Positions 16,513-42,115 of a stretch of DNA of 64,000 nucleotides are shown here, in pieces. The notes under the pieces are model-generated. The model was not told the origin of the DNA. It saw only the letters and a list, made by a program, of their open reading frames with translations, and searched no databases. Both the position numbers and the translations under genes were made by a program. The DNA comes from a virus: positions 21,828 through 85,827 of IMG/VR virus record IMGVR_UViG_3300027971_000039; one strand, given 5' to 3'. The number at the start of each line of letters is the position of its first letter. The stretch's first letter is position 1.

Positions 16513-18204
16513 TTAATCTGTTAATCGTAACCCTTTATAAAAGCTACTCATTGTATTTAATTGGTTTTTGATATCTGTTCCCCTAGCTTCATATTTGCCA
16601 ATTAATTCATTCATTACTTTAACTAAATTTTTTCTAGCCTGTGTTCGATCTTTTTCTGCTTTTAATGAATCTTGTTCGTTTTTACCAGCTACTTGTAATT
16701 GAACTAAAGCATCTTTAATGTCGTCGGCTATTTTACCACTAAAAATCTCACTCTTACCGGATTTAATATTTTTATAAAATTCGGCTGCCTTTTTTTCTAA
16801 TTCAACTTGATTTGATTTTAAGTTGTTTAATTCATCTTTGAATTTATATAATCCACCAGTCAGTGCTTTATTACCGGCCAATATTTCATTGTCTTTACCA
16901 CGAGTTTCAAGTAATTTGTTTTTTTGCTCACCATAGTCCATTTCACCTTTTTGTGACCCAACAAGAGATGCAATGTCTTCTTTTGAAACTAATCCAGCAT
17001 CCTTTGCTTTTTCTAATTCTTCTTCTTTAATTGGAGGAAGGCCAGTTAGTTTTCTTAGTGCATTTATTTTACTAAGATCTGTTTTCTTTGCATACCCTAA
17101 AGTAGCGGATTCATCTGCCCCTCTTGAAATGCCCTTTAGCTTAGACGAAATTCCAATTAATTTTTCTTGTTCTGGTGTTAAAGTTTCGCCTTTTCTTTTT
17201 TTAATATCCAACTCTTCAATTTTTTTATCTAAATCAGAGATATTTTGAATACCTTCAAACCCAGAAACATCTTGTAATCTTACTGCTCTTAGTTGATTAA
17301 CATCCGAAGGATCTAATCCTAGTTTTTTTAATTCAGATTTACTAACCGATCCAGTAAAAAATAAACCTTCTTTGAGTTTATCCAAAGCCGCTTTTTTAGA
17401 TTCAATTTGGGACTTTTGTTCTTCACTAAGTCCAGCCATGTATTTTTCTTGTTCGGCTTTAACGGCGGTTTCAGCTTGTGTTTTAGCAGCTTCAGTTTGA
17501 CCTTTAAGCAGCCCGGCTTGTTGAGCAGCAATCTCTTCGGCTGACATTGCTTTTTCAGCTAATCCAGTGGCAGCCTGTTGTGCTGAAGCTAATTCAGGAG
17601 ACATCTGTAATCCGGCCATTGCTTTAGCAAAGTCACCGGGGCGAACACCGCCCGGAGCAAAACCAGCATATTGTTGCGCTAATAGCTCAGGAGAGCCAGC
17701 TAATTGAGAAAGAGCTGCTATATTAGCAGTTCCTTGAAGCCCAGTAGGACCTTGGTATTGCATTTTTTGAAGCTTGTCGTATTCGCTTAGTTCAGCTTCA
17801 GATGCCTGACCAGATGTAATTTTACTTAATAAATCACTAATGCGTTCTTGAGCAGGAACGCCACCGGACGCTTTATTTAATTGCTCTTGAAATTGGGCTT
17901 GTTGTTGCTGAAGGGCAGCAGTTTTAGCTGCTACATCTGATTGCAATTTTTGCGCCAAAGCTTGTGAAAAACGAGGATCTGCCACTGCACCGGCTTGTTG
18001 TTGATATGTTACAGGAGCGGCTGGCTTCTTCTGTTGTTGTACTGGAGCCTGTTGAGGCTGCTGCATCGGAGGAAGTGAACTTTGAACCGCTTGTGATGGT
18101 TGAGCAGGTTGCTGCTGTCCCGGTTGTTGAACGGGCTGCTGTTGAGCGGGTTGTTGTTGCTTTTTCCTTGGATCATAAGGGTTTATAACAGGAGGCATGG
18201 GCAT
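16513..18204 (-). CDS. putative internal virion protein, Gln/Pro-rich N-terminus
   Basis: 563 aa helical; preceded by TAACAACT motif and AAGGTG RBS. Confidence 0.55.
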   Translation of the reverse strand: MPMPPVINPYDPRKKQQQPAQQQPVQQPGQQQPAQPSQAVQSSLPPMQQPQQAPVQQQKKPAAPVTYQQQAGAVADPRFSQALAQKLQSDVAAKTAALQQQQAQFQEQLNKASGGVPAQERISDLLSKITSGQASEAELSEYDKLQKMQYQGPTGLQGTANIAALSQLAGSPELLAQQYAGFAPGGVRPGDFAKAMAGLQMSPELASAQQAATGLAEKAMSAEEIAAQQAGLLKGQTEAAKTQAETAVKAEQEKYMAGLSEEQKSQIESKKAALDKLKEGLFFTGSVSKSELKKLGLDPSDVNQLRAVRLQDVSGFEGIQNISDLDKKIEELDIKKRKGETLTPEQEKLIGISSKLKGISRGADESATLGYAKKTDLSKINALRKLTGLPPIKEEELEKAKDAGLVSKEDIASLVGSQKGEMDYGEQKNKLLETRGKDNEILAGNKALTGGLYKFKDELNNLKSNQVELEKKAAEFYKNIKSGKSEIFSGKIADDIKDALVQLQVAGKNEQDSLKAEKDRTQARKNLVKVMNELIGKYEARGTDIKNQLNTMSSFYKGLRLTD

Positions 18205-36820: not shown

Positions 36821-38248
36821 TTATTTTTTATATACTAGGCGTAGTTTACCACAATCATATACTCGGTATAGACCATCTTTTAGAGAGTGTTCATGCTCAG
36901 TCATTCCAATTGGAGTATTCACCAACGCCTTTTGTCTAGATTGTTTGGATATAATGATCGCTTTCTTAGAGTCATAATAAAAATAATCTGGAGGTAGTAT
37001 CCCATCTAAAACCCAGCCATTTTTAATCCAAGAAGATCCATTGGACCACCTTAAATCAATCCATGTAATAAGTTCACTATATTTATTGCTTGCAAATTTA
37101 GTTAATTTAGTAATTCCACCAGCAACAGTATAGTTTTCCTTTACACAATACCTACTAATGACATATTCTTTGTTTTTTCTATGATGCTTTCCGATTGTAA
37201 TTACAGACAGTAATTCGTCGTTAAAGTATAAACCAATTGCTTCTATAAATGAACACGACCCTAAAATGTGATATTGATTTAAAAAATACTTAGCTTCTTT
37301 TTTAGGAACTTGTCTTATTTCACATTCCCTTCCGTATATTCTTATTTCATTTTTACCTAATTTAGATCGTAGAAAGGACTTTACTTGATTGCATTTATTC
37401 TTCCATTCAAAATCAAATATATGAATTAAATCCAACCCAGCTTCTTTTGCTATATTTGTTTTATCTAGGTGATATTTAGGATACATTTTTTTATTGTATT
37501 CTGAATGCCAAAAAGCACCGTTATATTCAATAGCTATATTATACTCTTTAATTTTTAAATCAATTTGTTTTGGGTTTTTTCCACCAATAAAAGAAGATTC
37601 TGCTGTAATACCAATAGATTCTAGCCATTTTTTTATTTGTAGTTCGCCTTCCGATACAAAGAAATTACCATTTTGTAATAGTGTATTTAGATATTTTTCT
37701 TTTGTTTCTGGTAAAGACGCTGGATTCTCTACTCCATATTTTTTTAAATTCGACTCTTTTAAGCCCAATTTAATTTTTTCAGAAAACATGGGATTAGATA
37801 CACCATGATTTGTAATGGTTGTTGAAATTTGTTTTTTTCTTAATTCTGGACTATGCATGGGGGATTCAACCCCATAATTAGACTTTAATGTGTTTTTTGA
37901 TTTGTTGAGAAACTCTTTATTTTGTAGTGCGTGTTCAACGCCATACTTTTCTTTCATTGTAGAGCGAGCTTTTTTACGCACTTCTACAGCGGCACCGGCA
38001 TTAGCAACTCCATATTTTGATAGGTTGGTGGATTCTCTGCGTTTTTTAACAGAGTTCGGATGCGTGCTTGCGTTTGCTTGTTGTAAAGCCTTAAAAGAAG
38101 ATACAAATTCACCGAATTCATCATCAATAAAGATCAATTTAGTATCTTTATTATATATATCTAATTGATTTAATTTGAGTTTAACTCCATCTGGAGTCCA
38201 ATATTTACTTTCATTTCTTTTTTGAATTACACCTTTGGGTCTTGCCAT
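36821..38248 (-). CDS. free-standing Hef-like homing endonuclease
   Basis: Five (K/N)(Y/H)GVx repeats, SEGE...IDLKI..YNIAIEYNGAFWH nuclease motif, LIHIFDFEW, C-terminal RVYDCG. Confidence 0.8.
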   Translation of the reverse strand: MARPKGVIQKRNESKYWTPDGVKLKLNQLDIYNKDTKLIFIDDEFGEFVSSFKALQQANASTHPNSVKKRRESTNLSKYGVANAGAAVEVRKKARSTMKEKYGVEHALQNKEFLNKSKNTLKSNYGVESPMHSPELRKKQISTTITNHGVSNPMFSEKIKLGLKESNLKKYGVENPASLPETKEKYLNTLLQNGNFFVSEGELQIKKWLESIGITAESSFIGGKNPKQIDLKIKEYNIAIEYNGAFWHSEYNKKMYPKYHLDKTNIAKEAGLDLIHIFDFEWKNKCNQVKSFLRSKLGKNEIRIYGRECEIRQVPKKEAKYFLNQYHILGSCSFIEAIGLYFNDELLSVITIGKHHRKNKEYVISRYCVKENYTVAGGITKLTKFASNKYSELITWIDLRWSNGSSWIKNGWVLDGILPPDYFYYDSKKAIIISKQSRQKALVNTPIGMTEHEHSLKDGLYRVYDCGKLRLVYKK

Positions 38249-38349: not shown

Positions 38350-40712
38350 TTAGCTATTAACAATGTCAGTAATAATGGTGTTACGACCGGGAGCCTGACA
38401 GAAGAGGGCCTGATCGGTGTAAAGGCGTAGCTCGTAAGCCGCGCTGTTCTCTAGGTCACGGAAGAACTCTTCACCTTGACCGGGACGCTTGAAGGTGATA
38501 TCGGTAGAACCGACGCGCATCCAGTCTTCAACGTTAAGAAGATAAGCATATCCTTGCTTAACATAAAGAGACGGCTCAATTTCAATCTCACCATTTTGTG
38601 AATGGAATTTGAGTGATTTTGATCCGTTTTCCATTTTAGCAGGACTGTAGCTCTGATCATACTTGCGTAGAGCAGCTTGGTCGGTGAGCATATTCTGCCA
38701 AGAACGGACGTTGACTAGAGCAAGAAGTGTACCTTCTTGACCTTTTTCAACGGCACGGGTTGCAGCCTGTCCGAGTTTGGTAAAGGATAGAGCAGCTGAA
38801 GCTGCGCTATAGGTGTTACCACGGAAGAGGTTGTAAGTTCCAACGTCGATGTTGAAGAGTGAACCTGAAGAAACGGTTAGAATCTTGTGGATTCCAGCGA
38901 ATTCGTTTCCGTAAGCCCCTTTGTGCCAAATAATATCACCAGAAGCGATGAGAGCAGCAACAGAAGAGTCACAGGTAACAGTCTGAGCAGACATGTCTAC
39001 TGAAAGAACCTTAACAGATGCTTTTAAGGCACCAGTTGAAGGATCGCGAATTTCAATAGGCATTCCTTCTGCCCCTGCCCAGATACCAGGTGCCCATTCA
39101 CCGGTTTCAATGGTGATAACTGCACCAAGTGCGGAGTCAACAACAGCATATCCAACCTGACCATAGAGCATTTCGATTTCGAGCTTCTTGGCCATAGAAC
39201 GGAGCATGTTTGCCACTAGGAATTTAGTAGCATCCATGAAAGCCTTCTGACCACCGAGAGCAGCACGAGAAGCAGCGACATAGCCAAGGAGTGAACGGAG
39301 AACGGCTGGAGAGCCTTTCACCTGAGCGTCTTTGACTTGTCCTGCGACTGGAGCTTGTAAGTTAACAAATTCAAATACTTAATGTATTTGTGTGGGGCTC
39401 TTTATCCCCACAGTCCCATATTTCTATGGGATTGGACTATCTTTTTTTCCAAAAACAGCTATAAAATAATTTACCATTGATTTATCTAAATTCATTAATT
39501 TAGCAATCTTATGTGGCGTATTATTATTGATATGTAAAGAAAGAATTTGTTCTTTCATTTCCATATACTTTTTTGGAAATCGAGGACTCGTGGAAGGATT
39601 ATTAACATTTTCAGTCTCACCTTCTAGTCTCTGCGCGTGTCCAGAGATTTCTTCTGAACTTCCGCTCTGATTGGCATGAGAAAGATATTCAAACTTAAAA
39701 TTTTTACGAATAACATTATATTTACAACTAGCTAAAATACTACTTCTAGAAATATTTAATTCTTTGCAAGCATTTTTAAAAGAACTAAAAACATATACTT
39801 CTGATGTAATTGTATTTATCGCTTTCACACCAACAATATGATTTGTCGATTCTTTGTTTAATTTTTTATTTCTCATTTTTTGTTTTGTTTCGTTGTCAAA
39901 AGTGTAATCATTACCACCAGTGGTTAAATTATAACCATTTGGGCGTAATGTATTATAAAATTCAATAAAATATTTTTCATAATAATTTAATGAATCTTTA
40001 TCAAAACAAGAAATAATTTCTTCAAATATAAAGTTATTAAGGCCGTATTTTTTAAAAGCCTTACCCAAAATACCAGATTTTGTCCACTTGTGTGCACCCC
40101 AACGTAAACGAACATTACGTTTGGTTTGACCAACGTATTGTTGTCCGTTAACTTTGTTAGTGATTAGGTAGATTAATCCGTATTTCATTTTATCTTTCTT
40201 TTAGCGTTCCAGGTTTTTTCCTCAATTTTCACTATACTGTTACCAGTATAGGGCCCTTAACTTAACAAGTCAAGGCGTCTTCGTCTGATCCGGCAAAAGT
40301 CACTCCGTGTTCTAACATACTGTTATCATTGAGTTTTTCTCAATAGGCTGGTCATTTCTGCCAACCTCTACCGTTTCATTTTGTTATTTCGGTAGTTCGG
40401 ACTATCGCATCAACTTTCGTTGCCAACTCGTTTAGTCTCTCACGGTGCTTTCGCTTCCGCCTTGTCACCCTCTACAGGGCTTCCAAGTCAATTAGAGTCG
40501 GTTTAGGCTCGGCTTAGAAGTTAACCGAGGATAATTGGCTGGTGATATAAATTCCCAGGTTGCTTATCCTTGCTCATGAACTTGATCTTATTTAGCAACT
40601 TAACCCCATCTGGGATTAACTCTGCAAGACGATCGGCATAAGTTTCTTTGAAAAATCCATTCAATGTTCCAACGGTATTATTTGGAGTACCGTAAGTATT
40701 TGCACTTGCCAT
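38350..40712 (-). CDS. major capsid protein, spliced: join(40712..40524, 40315..40273, 39365..38350), 415 aa
   Basis: Removing two group I introns gives an open frame ...HQPIILG-LEHGVTFAGSDEDA-FNLQAPVAGQVKDAQVKGSP...; follows scaffold and decoration genes; strong terminator after. Confidence 0.85.
39366..40272 (-). mobile_element. group I intron 2 (907 nt) carrying GIY-YIG endonuclease
   Basis: P1 GCCU|U pairs with AGGGC, U.G at the splice site; P10 UAAGUUAA/UUAACUUA; R GCAGAGACUA; S AAGAUAGUCC; P9 CCCAUA-GAAA-UAUGGG; terminal G. Confidence 0.9.
39424..40188 (-). CDS. intron-encoded GIY-YIG homing endonuclease
   Basis: LIYLITNKVNGQQYVGQT..RW..H, EKYFI...GYNL; NUMOD-like segments; C-terminal HTH-like segment. 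Confidence 0.9.
   Translation of the reverse strand: MKYGLIYLITNKVNGQQYVGQTKRNVRLRWGAHKWTKSGILGKAFKKYGLNNFIFEEIISCFDKDSLNYYEKYFIEFYNTLRPNGYNLTTGGNDYTFDNETKQKMRNKKLNKESTNHIVGVKAINTITSEVYVFSSFKNACKELNISRSSILASCKYNVIRKNFKFEYLSHANQSGSSEEISGHAQRLEGETENVNNPSTSPRFPKKYMEMKEQILSLHINNNTPHKIAKLMNLDKSMVNYFIAVFGKKDSPIP
40316..40523 (-). ncRNA. group I intron 1 (208 nt, ORF-less)
   Basis: P1 CUCGGU|...GCCGAG; P10 UUCUAA/UUAGAA; P3 CCGACUC/GAGUUGG; P7 GACUA/UAGUC; GAAA-capped P6 and P8; terminal G. Confidence 0.9.
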
Positions 40713-40735: not shown

Positions 40736-41059
40736 TTATTCTTTTACAACGTATTTTAAAATAACACTGTCGGCAGCAACCATAGCTGCACTGAGTGTTA
40801 GAGTTACTTGTGAATCAGCAACGCCGCCAGAAGGAGTTCCAATTGCAATTCCAGCTTGAGCGATTAGATAAACACCAACGCTGTCGTCACAATGTAAAGC
40901 AGCCCGAACTTCAGCAACAGGCTCACCCACTTGAATTACAACATTGGTTCCTGCCCCAAGAGCAATAACACCAATGTCTGATAGTTTTAAACAAAGTTCC
41001 TGCACTTTTAGTGCAACCGAAAGAACTTTGTCGTCTTTTGATTGATAAGAAATTGACAT
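40736..41059 (-). CDS. putative head decoration/cement protein
   Basis: 107 aa beta-rich, between scaffold and capsid. Confidence 0.5.
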   Translation of the reverse strand: MSISYQSKDDKVLSVALKVQELCLKLSDIGVIALGAGTNVVIQVGEPVAEVRAALHCDDSVGVYLIAQAGIAIGTPSGGVADSQVTLTLSAAMVAADSVILKYVVKE

Positions 41060-41179: not shown

Positions 41180-42115
41180 TCAAACTCCGAAAAAGTCCTT
41201 ATAAGACATTTTCTTTTCAGGTTCTTTTACAGAAGTTTTACCGCCCGTATCTTTTACTGCTTTAGCCGAAGAAACAGCAACTGCTTCTTTAGCCTTAGCA
41301 AGATTCTTTTTACGAAAATTAGCTAAACGCTGCTTTCCTAAAAACTGTTCTAATGCCTCATCTGGCATAGCGTTGATGAGGGTTTGAATATCTTTTTCAA
41401 GTTCTTGTTTTACAAGAGGAATAACATCTTCAGCAGAAACATCATATCCTTCTTGCAAAGCTACAAGCATATAATCTGCAATCTTCTTAACCACATATGG
41501 TTCTTTAGGAAGATTAGAGCTTTCTAAAGCAGCGGTCATTTGCTGATCGTACTTCTCGTATGCTTGCTCTTGTAGTCGTTCAAATTCTTTTTGTTCGAAT
41601 TGTTGTTTTTCTTGTTCACGTTCTTGTTTAAGAGAACGAAGTTCTTCTTCGATTCGTTCTTTTTCAAGTTGTTCAGGTGATTTTTGGGAGTTTTCAATTT
41701 CTTGTTCAATAATTTGTCTTGCTAATTCACGTTCATCAATACTAAGTTCTTTAAGAAGCTTGCGAGGGTTTTTAGTGCCTTCGGTGATTAGCTGACGAAT
41801 TTCTTTTTCAAGCTGGGCATATTCTTGAGCGCGTTTTGTTCCCATGCGTGACATTTGAAGGTGGCGCTTCATGTATTCAATAGCTTCAGGATCATCTGGA
41901 ATTTCAAATGGAAGATCTTCATCAATCTCACGTCCATCTACTTTTAGACGGAGAGAACGAAGCCTAGCTGCTTCTTTAACGGCAGCTTTTGCTTCTTGAC
42001 TAGAGTTTTGGGTTGTTTCTGGGGCATCTGCAATTTCGGCAGAAGAAGATTCGAATACCTCGCTTGAGGTTTCGGGACTAGCTGATTGTACAGCTTGTGC
42101 TGATGAATTATCCAT
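41180..42115 (-). CDS. capsid scaffolding protein
   Basis: Acidic N-terminus, LKVDGREI motif, long coiled coil; upstream of capsid. Confidence 0.75.
   Translation of the reverse strand: MDNSSAQAVQSASPETSSEVFESSSAEIADAPETTQNSSQEAKAAVKEAARLRSLRLKVDGREIDEDLPFEIPDDPEAIEYMKRHLQMSRMGTKRAQEYAQLEKEIRQLITEGTKNPRKLLKELSIDERELARQIIEQEIENSQKSPEQLEKERIEEELRSLKQEREQEKQQFEQKEFERLQEQAYEKYDQQMTAALESSNLPKEPYVVKKIADYMLVALQEGYDVSAEDVIPLVKQELEKDIQTLINAMPDEALEQFLGKQRLANFRKKNLAKAKEAVAVSSAKAVKDTGGKTSVKEPEKKMSYKDFFGV

Follow-up and report, generated by a model that had tools for sequence, protein, structure and literature searches.

The 64,000-nucleotide (nt) stretch of DNA analysed here, referred to throughout as the window, comprises bases 21828-85827 of an 85,827-bp virus genome (IMG/VR record IMGVR_UViG_3300027971_000039) that CheckV rates as 100% complete, and the metagenomes richest in its DNA carry the label 'freshwater'. 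On the minus strand the window holds a major capsid protein (MCP) gene in pieces, in a region for which the list of open reading frames (ORFs) gives products of 63 amino acids (aa; 40712-40521), 254 aa (40188-39424) and 323 aa (39321-38350). Very probably, two group I introns lying 43 nt apart interrupt the sole HK97-type capsid gene of this freshwater phage of 85.8 kb. The parts of the gene are as follows.

40524-40712 (-): MCP exon 1, 63 codons, ending ...ILG, from the ORF list and the junction search
40316-40523 (-): intron 1, 208 nt, predicted group I, ORF-less
40273-40315 (-): MCP exon 2, 43 nt, coding LEHGVTFAGSDEDA plus the first base (T) of a phenylalanine (F) codon
39366-40272 (-): intron 2, 907 nt, predicted group I, with a homing endonuclease ORF
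39424-40188 (-): GIY-YIG homing endonuclease ORF, 254 aa, inside intron 2, from Pfam and PHROG matches
38350-39365 (-): MCP exon 3, the TT of the F codon, 337 codons and the stop

Three exons of one capsid gene

Joining the three exons (189+43+1016 = 1248 nt) gives a protein of 415 aa with a single, terminal stop. The joined protein is identical to P0003, an uninterrupted homolog of the same 415-aa length, at 400 of 415 positions, and at 95 of 95 over the first 95 residues, a stretch that includes both junctions. The exon 1 product is 100% identical to residues 1-63 of P0003, in which LEHGVTFAGSDEDA stands directly between ...PIILG and FNLQAPVAG, and the exon 2 segment is found at the same position in P0004, P0006 and P0007 as well. 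The junctions were located by scoring against P0003 all donor/acceptor pairs within +/-45 nt of the ends of the tblastn segments. Three pairs share the best score for intron 1 and two for intron 2, and exactly one of each set has a U before the cut together with a terminal G. The pairs so chosen are 40524|40523...40316|40315 and 40273|40272...39366|39365.

A first-pass annotation of this DNA, made from the letters and ORFs, had described the 63-aa and 323-aa fragments, which the ORF list places at 40521-40712(-) and 38350-39321(-), and had proposed splicing at 40524/40315 and 40273/39365; every coordinate proved correct, and the 415-aa frame is restored. Its argument that skipping of exon 2 would shift the frame holds, 43 not being divisible by 3. 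The absence of the segment LEHGVTF from intron-less homologs would have told against the proposal, and alignment to these homologs finds the segment exactly between the two predicted junctions. The warning that automated annotation would truncate the gene was also justified, gene callers returning 63-aa and 323-aa fragments while the full capsid protein is lost. Many protein database entries of the capsid family (e.g. P0002, P0005, P0009, P0022, P0040 and P0099) are truncated or chimeric, at 323-385 aa, and such shortened entries begin at intron-exon borders or read in from the intron; for this phage group their lengths are 323, 336, 357, 361 and 363 aa.

The gene product is an HK97-type major capsid protein, as identified by a family match, fold matches and its single copy. 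The 323-aa piece matches phrog_14242, 'major head protein', at 1.5e-10, and because the alignment covers profile positions 166-388 of 396, the piece resembles a capsid protein lacking its N-terminal quarter. A protein search with the in-frame extension of this piece found 2209 relatives, most of the best being 408-422 aa long and several exactly 415 aa. A protein search of the genome itself returned only the three pieces of this gene; the capsid gene is single-copy, with no second in the record. An AlphaFold model of P0003 is of low to medium confidence, with a predicted local distance difference test (pLDDT) score of 58.4, falling below 50 at residues 52-127, the region of the intron hotspot considered below. 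Its best Foldseek matches are capsids, namely VP1 capsid (1.8e-6), PhiTE and HK97 prohead, and comparison with the MCP of Arthrobacter phage Jasmine gives 3.1e-15 and a template modelling (TM) score of 0.52. A profile search of solved structures (PDB) with the capsid sequence yielded chance matches only (E 0.65). Among 50,697 phage records, Megablast found no match to the region, and a tblastn search of phage records with exon 3 picked up a single distant relative, a Silvanigrella phage, at 29% identity.

The two predicted ribozymes and related RNA contigs

The elements that the first-pass annotation had listed for both inserts, a P1 helix with a U.G pair at the 5' splice site, a P10, a P7 and a terminal G, are present in both. 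Intron 1 opens with an in-frame UAA and ends in G40316. Its main elements are the following.

40508-40519 (-): internal guide sequence of intron 1, UUCUAA (P10) followed directly by GCCGAG (P1)
40328-40501 (-): core of intron 1, with P3 at 40501-40495/40429-40423 and P7 at 40437-40433/40404-40400

In P1, GCCGAG pairs with CUCGGU at the end of exon 1 (40529-40524), the last exon base, U40524, facing a G at the cut. In P10, UUCUAA pairs with UUAGAA, the first 6 nt of exon 2 (40315-40310), and in one relative (locus L015) exon CUAGAA faces guide UUCUAG, a compensatory change in this helix. The core also has P4, P5, P6, P8, P9, P9.1 and P9.2, and its P7 (GACUA/UAGUC) crosses P3 as a pseudoknot. 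The minimum free energy (MFE) fold of the intron has a z-score of -4.55, with none of 200 shuffles equally stable; that fold and RNAalifold, run on five sequences, both recover P3, P4, P5, P6/P6a, P8, P9 and P9.1, and the MFE fold recovers P9.2 too. A sequence-only MAFFT alignment of five introns, taken from the window and four contigs, has 99.6% of its cells paired, as against 27-45% when the 3' partners are slid. Two-sided changes occur in 15 of the 47 pairs, a number matched in none of 500 shuffles.

A covariance model, R1, built from the five-intron alignment was searched in the loci of 73 relatives and the window. Of the 29 matches, intron 1, at 235 bits, is the only one that falls in the window or anywhere else in the record. 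The alignment of these 29 rows (23 distinct) has 95.9% of cells paired and two-sided changes in 36 of 42 pairs; it is fitted to the model, unlike the sequence-only alignment of five. Full-length R1 matches are also found in three named phages, each placed exactly where a gene is split, between its two halves.

2489-2691: Roseobacter phage CRP-118 (OR420741.1, L076), split ribonucleotide reductase, R1 84.5 bits
2491-2690: spring-water podovirus ctn9Y15 (MW202674.1, L078), split P22-type coat protein, R1 109 bits
2353-2607: crAss-like phage cr50_1 (MT774375.1, L077), split dUTPase, R1 54 bits

The records of these three phages annotate no intron at the matches, that in cr50_1 adjoining an annotated intron HNH endonuclease, and Rfam at E <= 0.01 finds nothing on the three matches. 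To judge by these sequence relationships, intron 1 is a member of a phage intron subclass, R1-type, that is missed by the public Rfam group I model and occurs in split ribonucleotide reductase, dUTPase and coat-protein genes.

Intron 2, which has an in-frame UAA after 3 codons and ends in G39366, is laid out as follows.

40253-40263 (-): internal guide sequence of intron 2, AAGUUAA (P10) followed directly by GGGC (P1)
40191-40251 (-): 5' part, with the P2 hairpin (40251-40232) and the 5' strands of P3 (40225-40220), P4 (40211-40209) and P5 (40199-40191)
39373-39687 (-): 3' core, with P5' 39687-39679, P4' 39674-39672, P6 39665-39663/39637-39635, P6a, P7 39629-39625/39439-39435, P7.1 39624-39620/39597-39593, P3' 39585-39580, P8 39579-39570/39455-39446, P9, P9.1 and P9.2

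Here GGGC pairs with GCCU at the end of exon 2 (40276-40273), again with a U.G at the cut, and AAGUUAA pairs with UUAACUU, the first 7 nt of exon 3 (39365-39359). Relatives carry compensatory changes in both helices: in L018 exon UCAACUU goes with guide GAGUUGA (P10), and in L035 exon GCGU goes with guide GCGC (P1). In a sequence-only MAFFT alignment of 12 full-length family members, P3, P4, P6, P7, P7.1, P9 and P9.1 each have 100% of cells paired, and two-sided changes are seen in all of these but P4; the P7 of the family, for example, reads GCAUA/UAUGC instead of GACUA/UAGUC in two members. In total, two-sided changes affect 43 of 70 pairs, and none of 500 shuffles is as high. The lower pairing of P1, P10, P2 and P8 (62-79%) is attributed to members at different sites having unrelated guides, which MAFFT leaves unaligned. 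The Rfam group I model, RF00028, scores intron 2 at 22.3 bits (39688-39414, E 6.4e-5 per genome). An ORF-less relative of the intron, 256 nt long (L010:2706-2961), has a plain P5 hairpin where others carry the endonuclease gene, and RF00028 gives 50.3 bits to L010:2674-2926, which overlaps it, just over the gathering score of 50 bits. A distant search of phage records with the intron 2 core found no match.

Four metatranscriptome runs hold 8-10% of the stretch's words, and their contigs were aligned to the window at >=88% likeness; several parts of the stretch are without RNA contigs, to which no weight is given. In one contig from run X17, 40524 is joined to 39365 with about 44 letters between (exon 2 has 43), and in an X20 contig 40531 is joined to 39357 with 58 letters between, that is, 7+43+8. 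The match of a second X20 contig ends at 40524, and what follows is, once reverse-complemented, the beginning of exon 2. An X17 contig of another kind matches 40069-40267 and then runs into 29 letters that reverse-complement the final 29 bases of intron 2, differing, in a comparison by eye, at four bases in the L9.2 loop. Its joint connects the terminal G to base 6 of intron 2, directly after a U, and looks like that of a truncated group I intron circle. The RNA contigs with joined exons, which come from two studies, are supportive of splicing and not decisive.

In light of these features, the following course of events is proposed. Each guide would form two helices, P1 with the last bases of the upstream exon, the U.G marking the splice site, and P10 with the first bases of the downstream exon, while the P3-P9 core with its P3/P7 pseudoknot would catalyse the two transesterifications for each intron. 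Splicing of both introns would then yield the 1248-nt reading frame and the 415-aa capsid protein, and the in-frame stop near the start of each intron would keep ribosomes out of unspliced RNA. Intron 2 would be mobile by means of the I-TevI-like GIY-YIG gene in its L5 loop, intron 1 being ORF-less. Self-splicing of both introns is expected in vivo as well as in vitro.

Several observations weigh against this reading. RF00028 gives no match to intron 1 even at E <= 10 on 256 nt, a point against membership as this model judges it, and its score for intron 2 lies 28 bits below the gathering score. R1 in turn finds no match in phage T4 and at best 11.5 bits in Staphylococcus phage Twort, and the intron 1 subclass is thus not tied by sequence to an experimentally spliced intron. 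In intron 2, P1 has only 4 bp, and P4 and P6 only 3 bp each, as drawn. Its long-range P5 stem (AGAAAGAUA/UAUCUUUCU) is at the expected place in every member, but shuffling this AU-rich sequence yields stems of equal length, in 66 of 500 cases for the window; among 11 members the stems of 9 are not separable from chance (14-395 of 500 as long), those of the other two giving 0 of 500. Because shuffles match its length, P5 is assigned from position only. As for the RNA, the contigs, at 88-99% likeness to the window, fall short of identity and come from relatives; the contigs with joined exons could be transcripts or DNA of intron-less relatives, since 45 of the 69 relatives counted are uninterrupted in DNA, and the circle-like joint is known from a single contig.

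The Rfam scores have to be read against the behaviour of the model in other phages. At the gathering threshold Rfam finds only a tRNA in the whole window, and at E <= 10 on the surrounding 2.5 kb it returns chance matches only, with no group II family. In T4, RF00028 has three strong matches, which we take to be the three introns of that phage, and two of these, at 40.3 and 35.7 bits, are below the cut-off; the model thus under-calls phage introns. Twort is reported to carry three group I introns in one gene, orf142 (Landthaler and Shub 1999). In its genome (NC_007021.1) RF00028 matches 16606-16892, 16973-17197 and 17248-17506, leaving gaps of about 80 and 50 nt that resemble the 43-nt exon of the window. 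These matches score 64-101 bits, in contrast to 0 and 22 for the introns of the window, and Twort has no R1 match.

The short helices of intron 2, the additional constraint that endonuclease coding places on its core and the low Rfam scores would all fit a different state of affairs, in which one or both inserts are derived from group I introns and have lost self-splicing, so that they depend on a protein cofactor (a host or phage maturase) or a neighbouring ribozyme, or splice so poorly that capsid production is limited. This is unlikely. Every core helix has been kept by compensatory changes among relatives that are 20-30% divergent, which indicates selection on the RNA fold, and the RNA contigs show exact exon joints and the intron-circle-like joint. 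Still less probable is that the gene is dead, belonging to a defective phage or to an assembly chimera disrupted by selfish insertions. As it stands the gene is untranslatable and the record is a metagenome assembly, but this is the only capsid gene in a record rated complete, and its exons are closely identical to the intact homolog, with the frame undamaged. Moreover, the same two introns sit at the same sites in relatives L012, L014 and L018, together with a third intron, in exons that are 71-78% identical in DNA, and the words of the stretch are found again, at 94% and 60%, in two more DNA runs. Hardly credible at all is another mechanism, be it translational bypassing, an intein, a group II intron or separately translated subunits created by a free-standing endonuclease gene: a homing endonuclease gene does lie between gene pieces, as in some split phage genes, but the 14 codons of exon 2 include no start codon, the group I fold is complete in both inserts and comes with an exon-matched guide, and the Rfam search finds no group II family. 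An intein in particular is excluded by the stop codons and frame changes in the inserts.

Endonuclease coding and insertion sites among the relatives

The 254-aa ORF of intron 2, which the first-pass annotation did not mention, matches PF01541 at residues 4-87 (E 5.6e-11, 43 bits against a cut-off of 22.6). It also matches two homing endonuclease families, phrog_314 (9.6e-29, residues 1-232) and phrog_7168 (residues 3-240). Matches of its C-terminal part are below threshold: NUMOD1 (E 0.014, 16 bits against 22.8), HTH_SB (0.18) and MarR (0.17). On the sequence evidence, intron 2 is probably a mobile intron that homes by means of its endonuclease.

Because the ORF-less relative in L010 has a plain P5 hairpin at this point, the ORF is placed in loop L5, where its first ~500 nt lie. 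From there it runs through P5', P4', P6/P6a, P7, P7.1, P3' and P8, continues across an insert in L8 and terminates in L9; ORF and core share about 150 nt, made up of the helices from P5' to P8 and from P8' to L9. The L8 insert has been delimited as follows.

39456-39569 (-): L8 insert of intron 2, ~114 nt, coding a helix-turn-helix (HTH)-like C-terminal part of the endonuclease; alignment A4, columns 835-948

Most ORFs of the intron 2 family stop in the P7.1/7.2 region, whereas those of the window, L018 and L035 continue to L9. The same three have the L8 insert, which is missing from the 9 other aligned family members; its peptide is conserved, with HTH matches that are weak and below cut-off. 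A nearly invariant peptide of the intron endonucleases, ANQSGS...HAQR(L), is translated from the P4'-P6-P7 strands of the ribozyme (39687-39570(-) in the window), and its conservation probably reflects constraint on the RNA rather than on the protein. The 5' strand of P5 covers the purine-rich stretch directly before the endonuclease ATG, and P5 may occlude the ribosome-binding site of the endonuclease.

Of the 73 related loci, 4 are cut by contig ends, and among the 69 counted the 24 capsid genes that are not continuous are interrupted by one to three introns. About eleven insertion sites fall within the first 90 codons, after codons ~21, 24, 49-53, 57, 59, 63, 67, 68, 77, 86 and 90, the multi-intron loci L032, L062 and L068 being resolved approximately. 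When junction pairs were scored in the window and the 24 interrupted relatives (n=35), 24 had a unique solution with U...G; of the other 11, one had no solution and 10 had no U...G, and most of these spanned unresolved micro-exons. Three introns lie within about 20 codons in L013 (2020-3969) and L002 (2020-3505), and two in L010 (1812-2961), the micro-exons in these clusters measuring 18, 24 and ~30 nt. With the 43-nt exon, the micro-exons among relatives include one of 18 nt (QPVILG, L013) and one of 24 nt (IILGLEHG, L002 and L010).

Cores of the intron 1 type are found at codon sites ~24, 57, 59 and 63, and those of the intron 2 type at ~67, 68, 77, 86 and 90. At every other insertion site of both core types the guide sequences match the local exons; at site 57, for example, an intron 1-type core has a retargeted guide in which UACCAU pairs with GUGGUA and CAAC with GUUG. 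In DNA, the window and L018 share 92% identity across intron 1 and 72-78% across the exons, which would fit recent lateral spread, although intron 1 itself is ORF-less, or strong constraint. A third ribozyme type is present in the same hotspot: a capsid intron at about codon 50 of a 52%-identical relative (L068, 3632-3869) scores 81.2 bits with RF00028.

A broader reading of these observations, which we put forward tentatively and regard as somewhat doubtful, is that two ribozyme lineages have repeatedly jumped to new positions a few codons apart within the first ~90 codons of the capsid gene, altering nothing but their guides, and that intron 2 is the most extreme case among those compared of core creep, the extension of an ORF into core helices. 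If this is so, the gene holds a natural record of ectopic group I transposition within one gene, with micro-exons down to 18 nt. The intron 2 endonuclease would then be coded in two loops, L5 and L8, with a linker translated from the ~150 nt of catalytic core, and one stretch of RNA would be selected both as ribozyme and as protein. Independently of that reading, the 24 interrupted relatives with their roughly eleven sites are a compact natural data set on target-site change by group I introns, and also show how endonuclease ORFs coexist with ribozyme cores.

Precedents and neighbouring genes

Introns in capsid genes have been published. In mycobacteriophage LittleE an intron interrupts the major capsid subunit gene, its splicing having been established by reverse transcription-PCR and N-terminal protein sequencing, and the same paper cites a capsid-gene intron of lactococcal phage Tuc2009 (PMC3706429). 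The LittleE intron resembles those of the window in being a probable group I intron near the 5' part of the capsid gene, with a U at the exon end, a terminal G and an endonuclease ORF (Pope et al. 2013, PMC3706429). It differs in being single, in having a LAGLIDADG-like ORF on the opposite strand and in coming from a phage of a high-GC host, whereas the window has two introns and a same-strand GIY-YIG ORF; a family-wide hotspot such as that seen among the relatives of the window is not described for LittleE in the accessible part of that paper (PMC3706429).

In the Delta and Zeta groups of crAss-like phages, group I introns typically lie in core genes, the MCP among them (Yutin et al. 2021, PMC7886860). 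The likeness extends to one MCP in five fragments, and to discovery in metagenome assemblies in which annotation was complicated (PMC7886860). In contrast to the introns of the window, those of the crAss-like phages were recognised by protein domains, and they occur in gut phages of Bacteroidota with an unrelated capsid sequence; the covariation and guide analysis made here of the window introns has no counterpart in the portion of the crAss-like account that was accessible (PMC7886860). In Jug phages, 2513 group I introns have been described, and splicing is visible in metatranscriptomes (PMC12880540).

For the coding overlap the nearest precedent is T4 td with I-TevI, in which a GIY-YIG ORF in a peripheral loop likewise extends into core helices, the 'core creep' of Edgell et al. 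(2011, PMC3073962). In td the ribosome-binding site is sequestered in a hairpin (PMC3073962), for which P5 is the presumed counterpart in the window. The td ORF, placed in the P6 loop, has a core overlap of 20 nt (PMC3073962), in contrast to the window ORF, which lies in L5 with an overlap of ~150 nt and the L8 insert. Against the table of published core-creep overlaps in that paper, which spans 0-81 nt, the ~150 nt of intron 2 is the larger (PMC3073962).

The two group I introns proposed for the capsid gene by the first-pass annotation are thus upheld by fold, covariation, junctions and RNA contigs, and the novelty that it implied is not, LittleE, Tuc2009 and the crAss-like phages having come before; the two self-splicing events that it inferred are best read as predicted. 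The gene adds a case to the published capsid-gene introns, of a kind already known, and goes somewhat beyond them in how densely retargeted sites cluster within one short segment of the gene, in the very large extent to which ORF and core overlap in intron 2, and in an intron subclass that the Rfam model does not detect. With it, a freshwater lineage joins the short list of those in which the most highly expressed late gene would depend on ribozyme splicing.

Upstream of the capsid gene lie two genes whose products have no match in PHROGs at E <= 0.001, and downstream a second endonuclease gene.

40736-41059 (-): 107-aa protein without a family match
41180-42115 (-): 311-aa, highly charged protein
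36821-38248 (-): 475-aa free-standing homing endonuclease gene (DUF7487, 9.2e-33; phrog_3339, 3e-93)

The 311-aa protein is possibly a scaffold, a guess made from its composition. The 475-aa endonuclease gene begins about 100 nt past the capsid stop, and with this gene adjoining it and the GIY-YIG ORF inside it, the capsid gene is both flanked and invaded by selfish nucleases.

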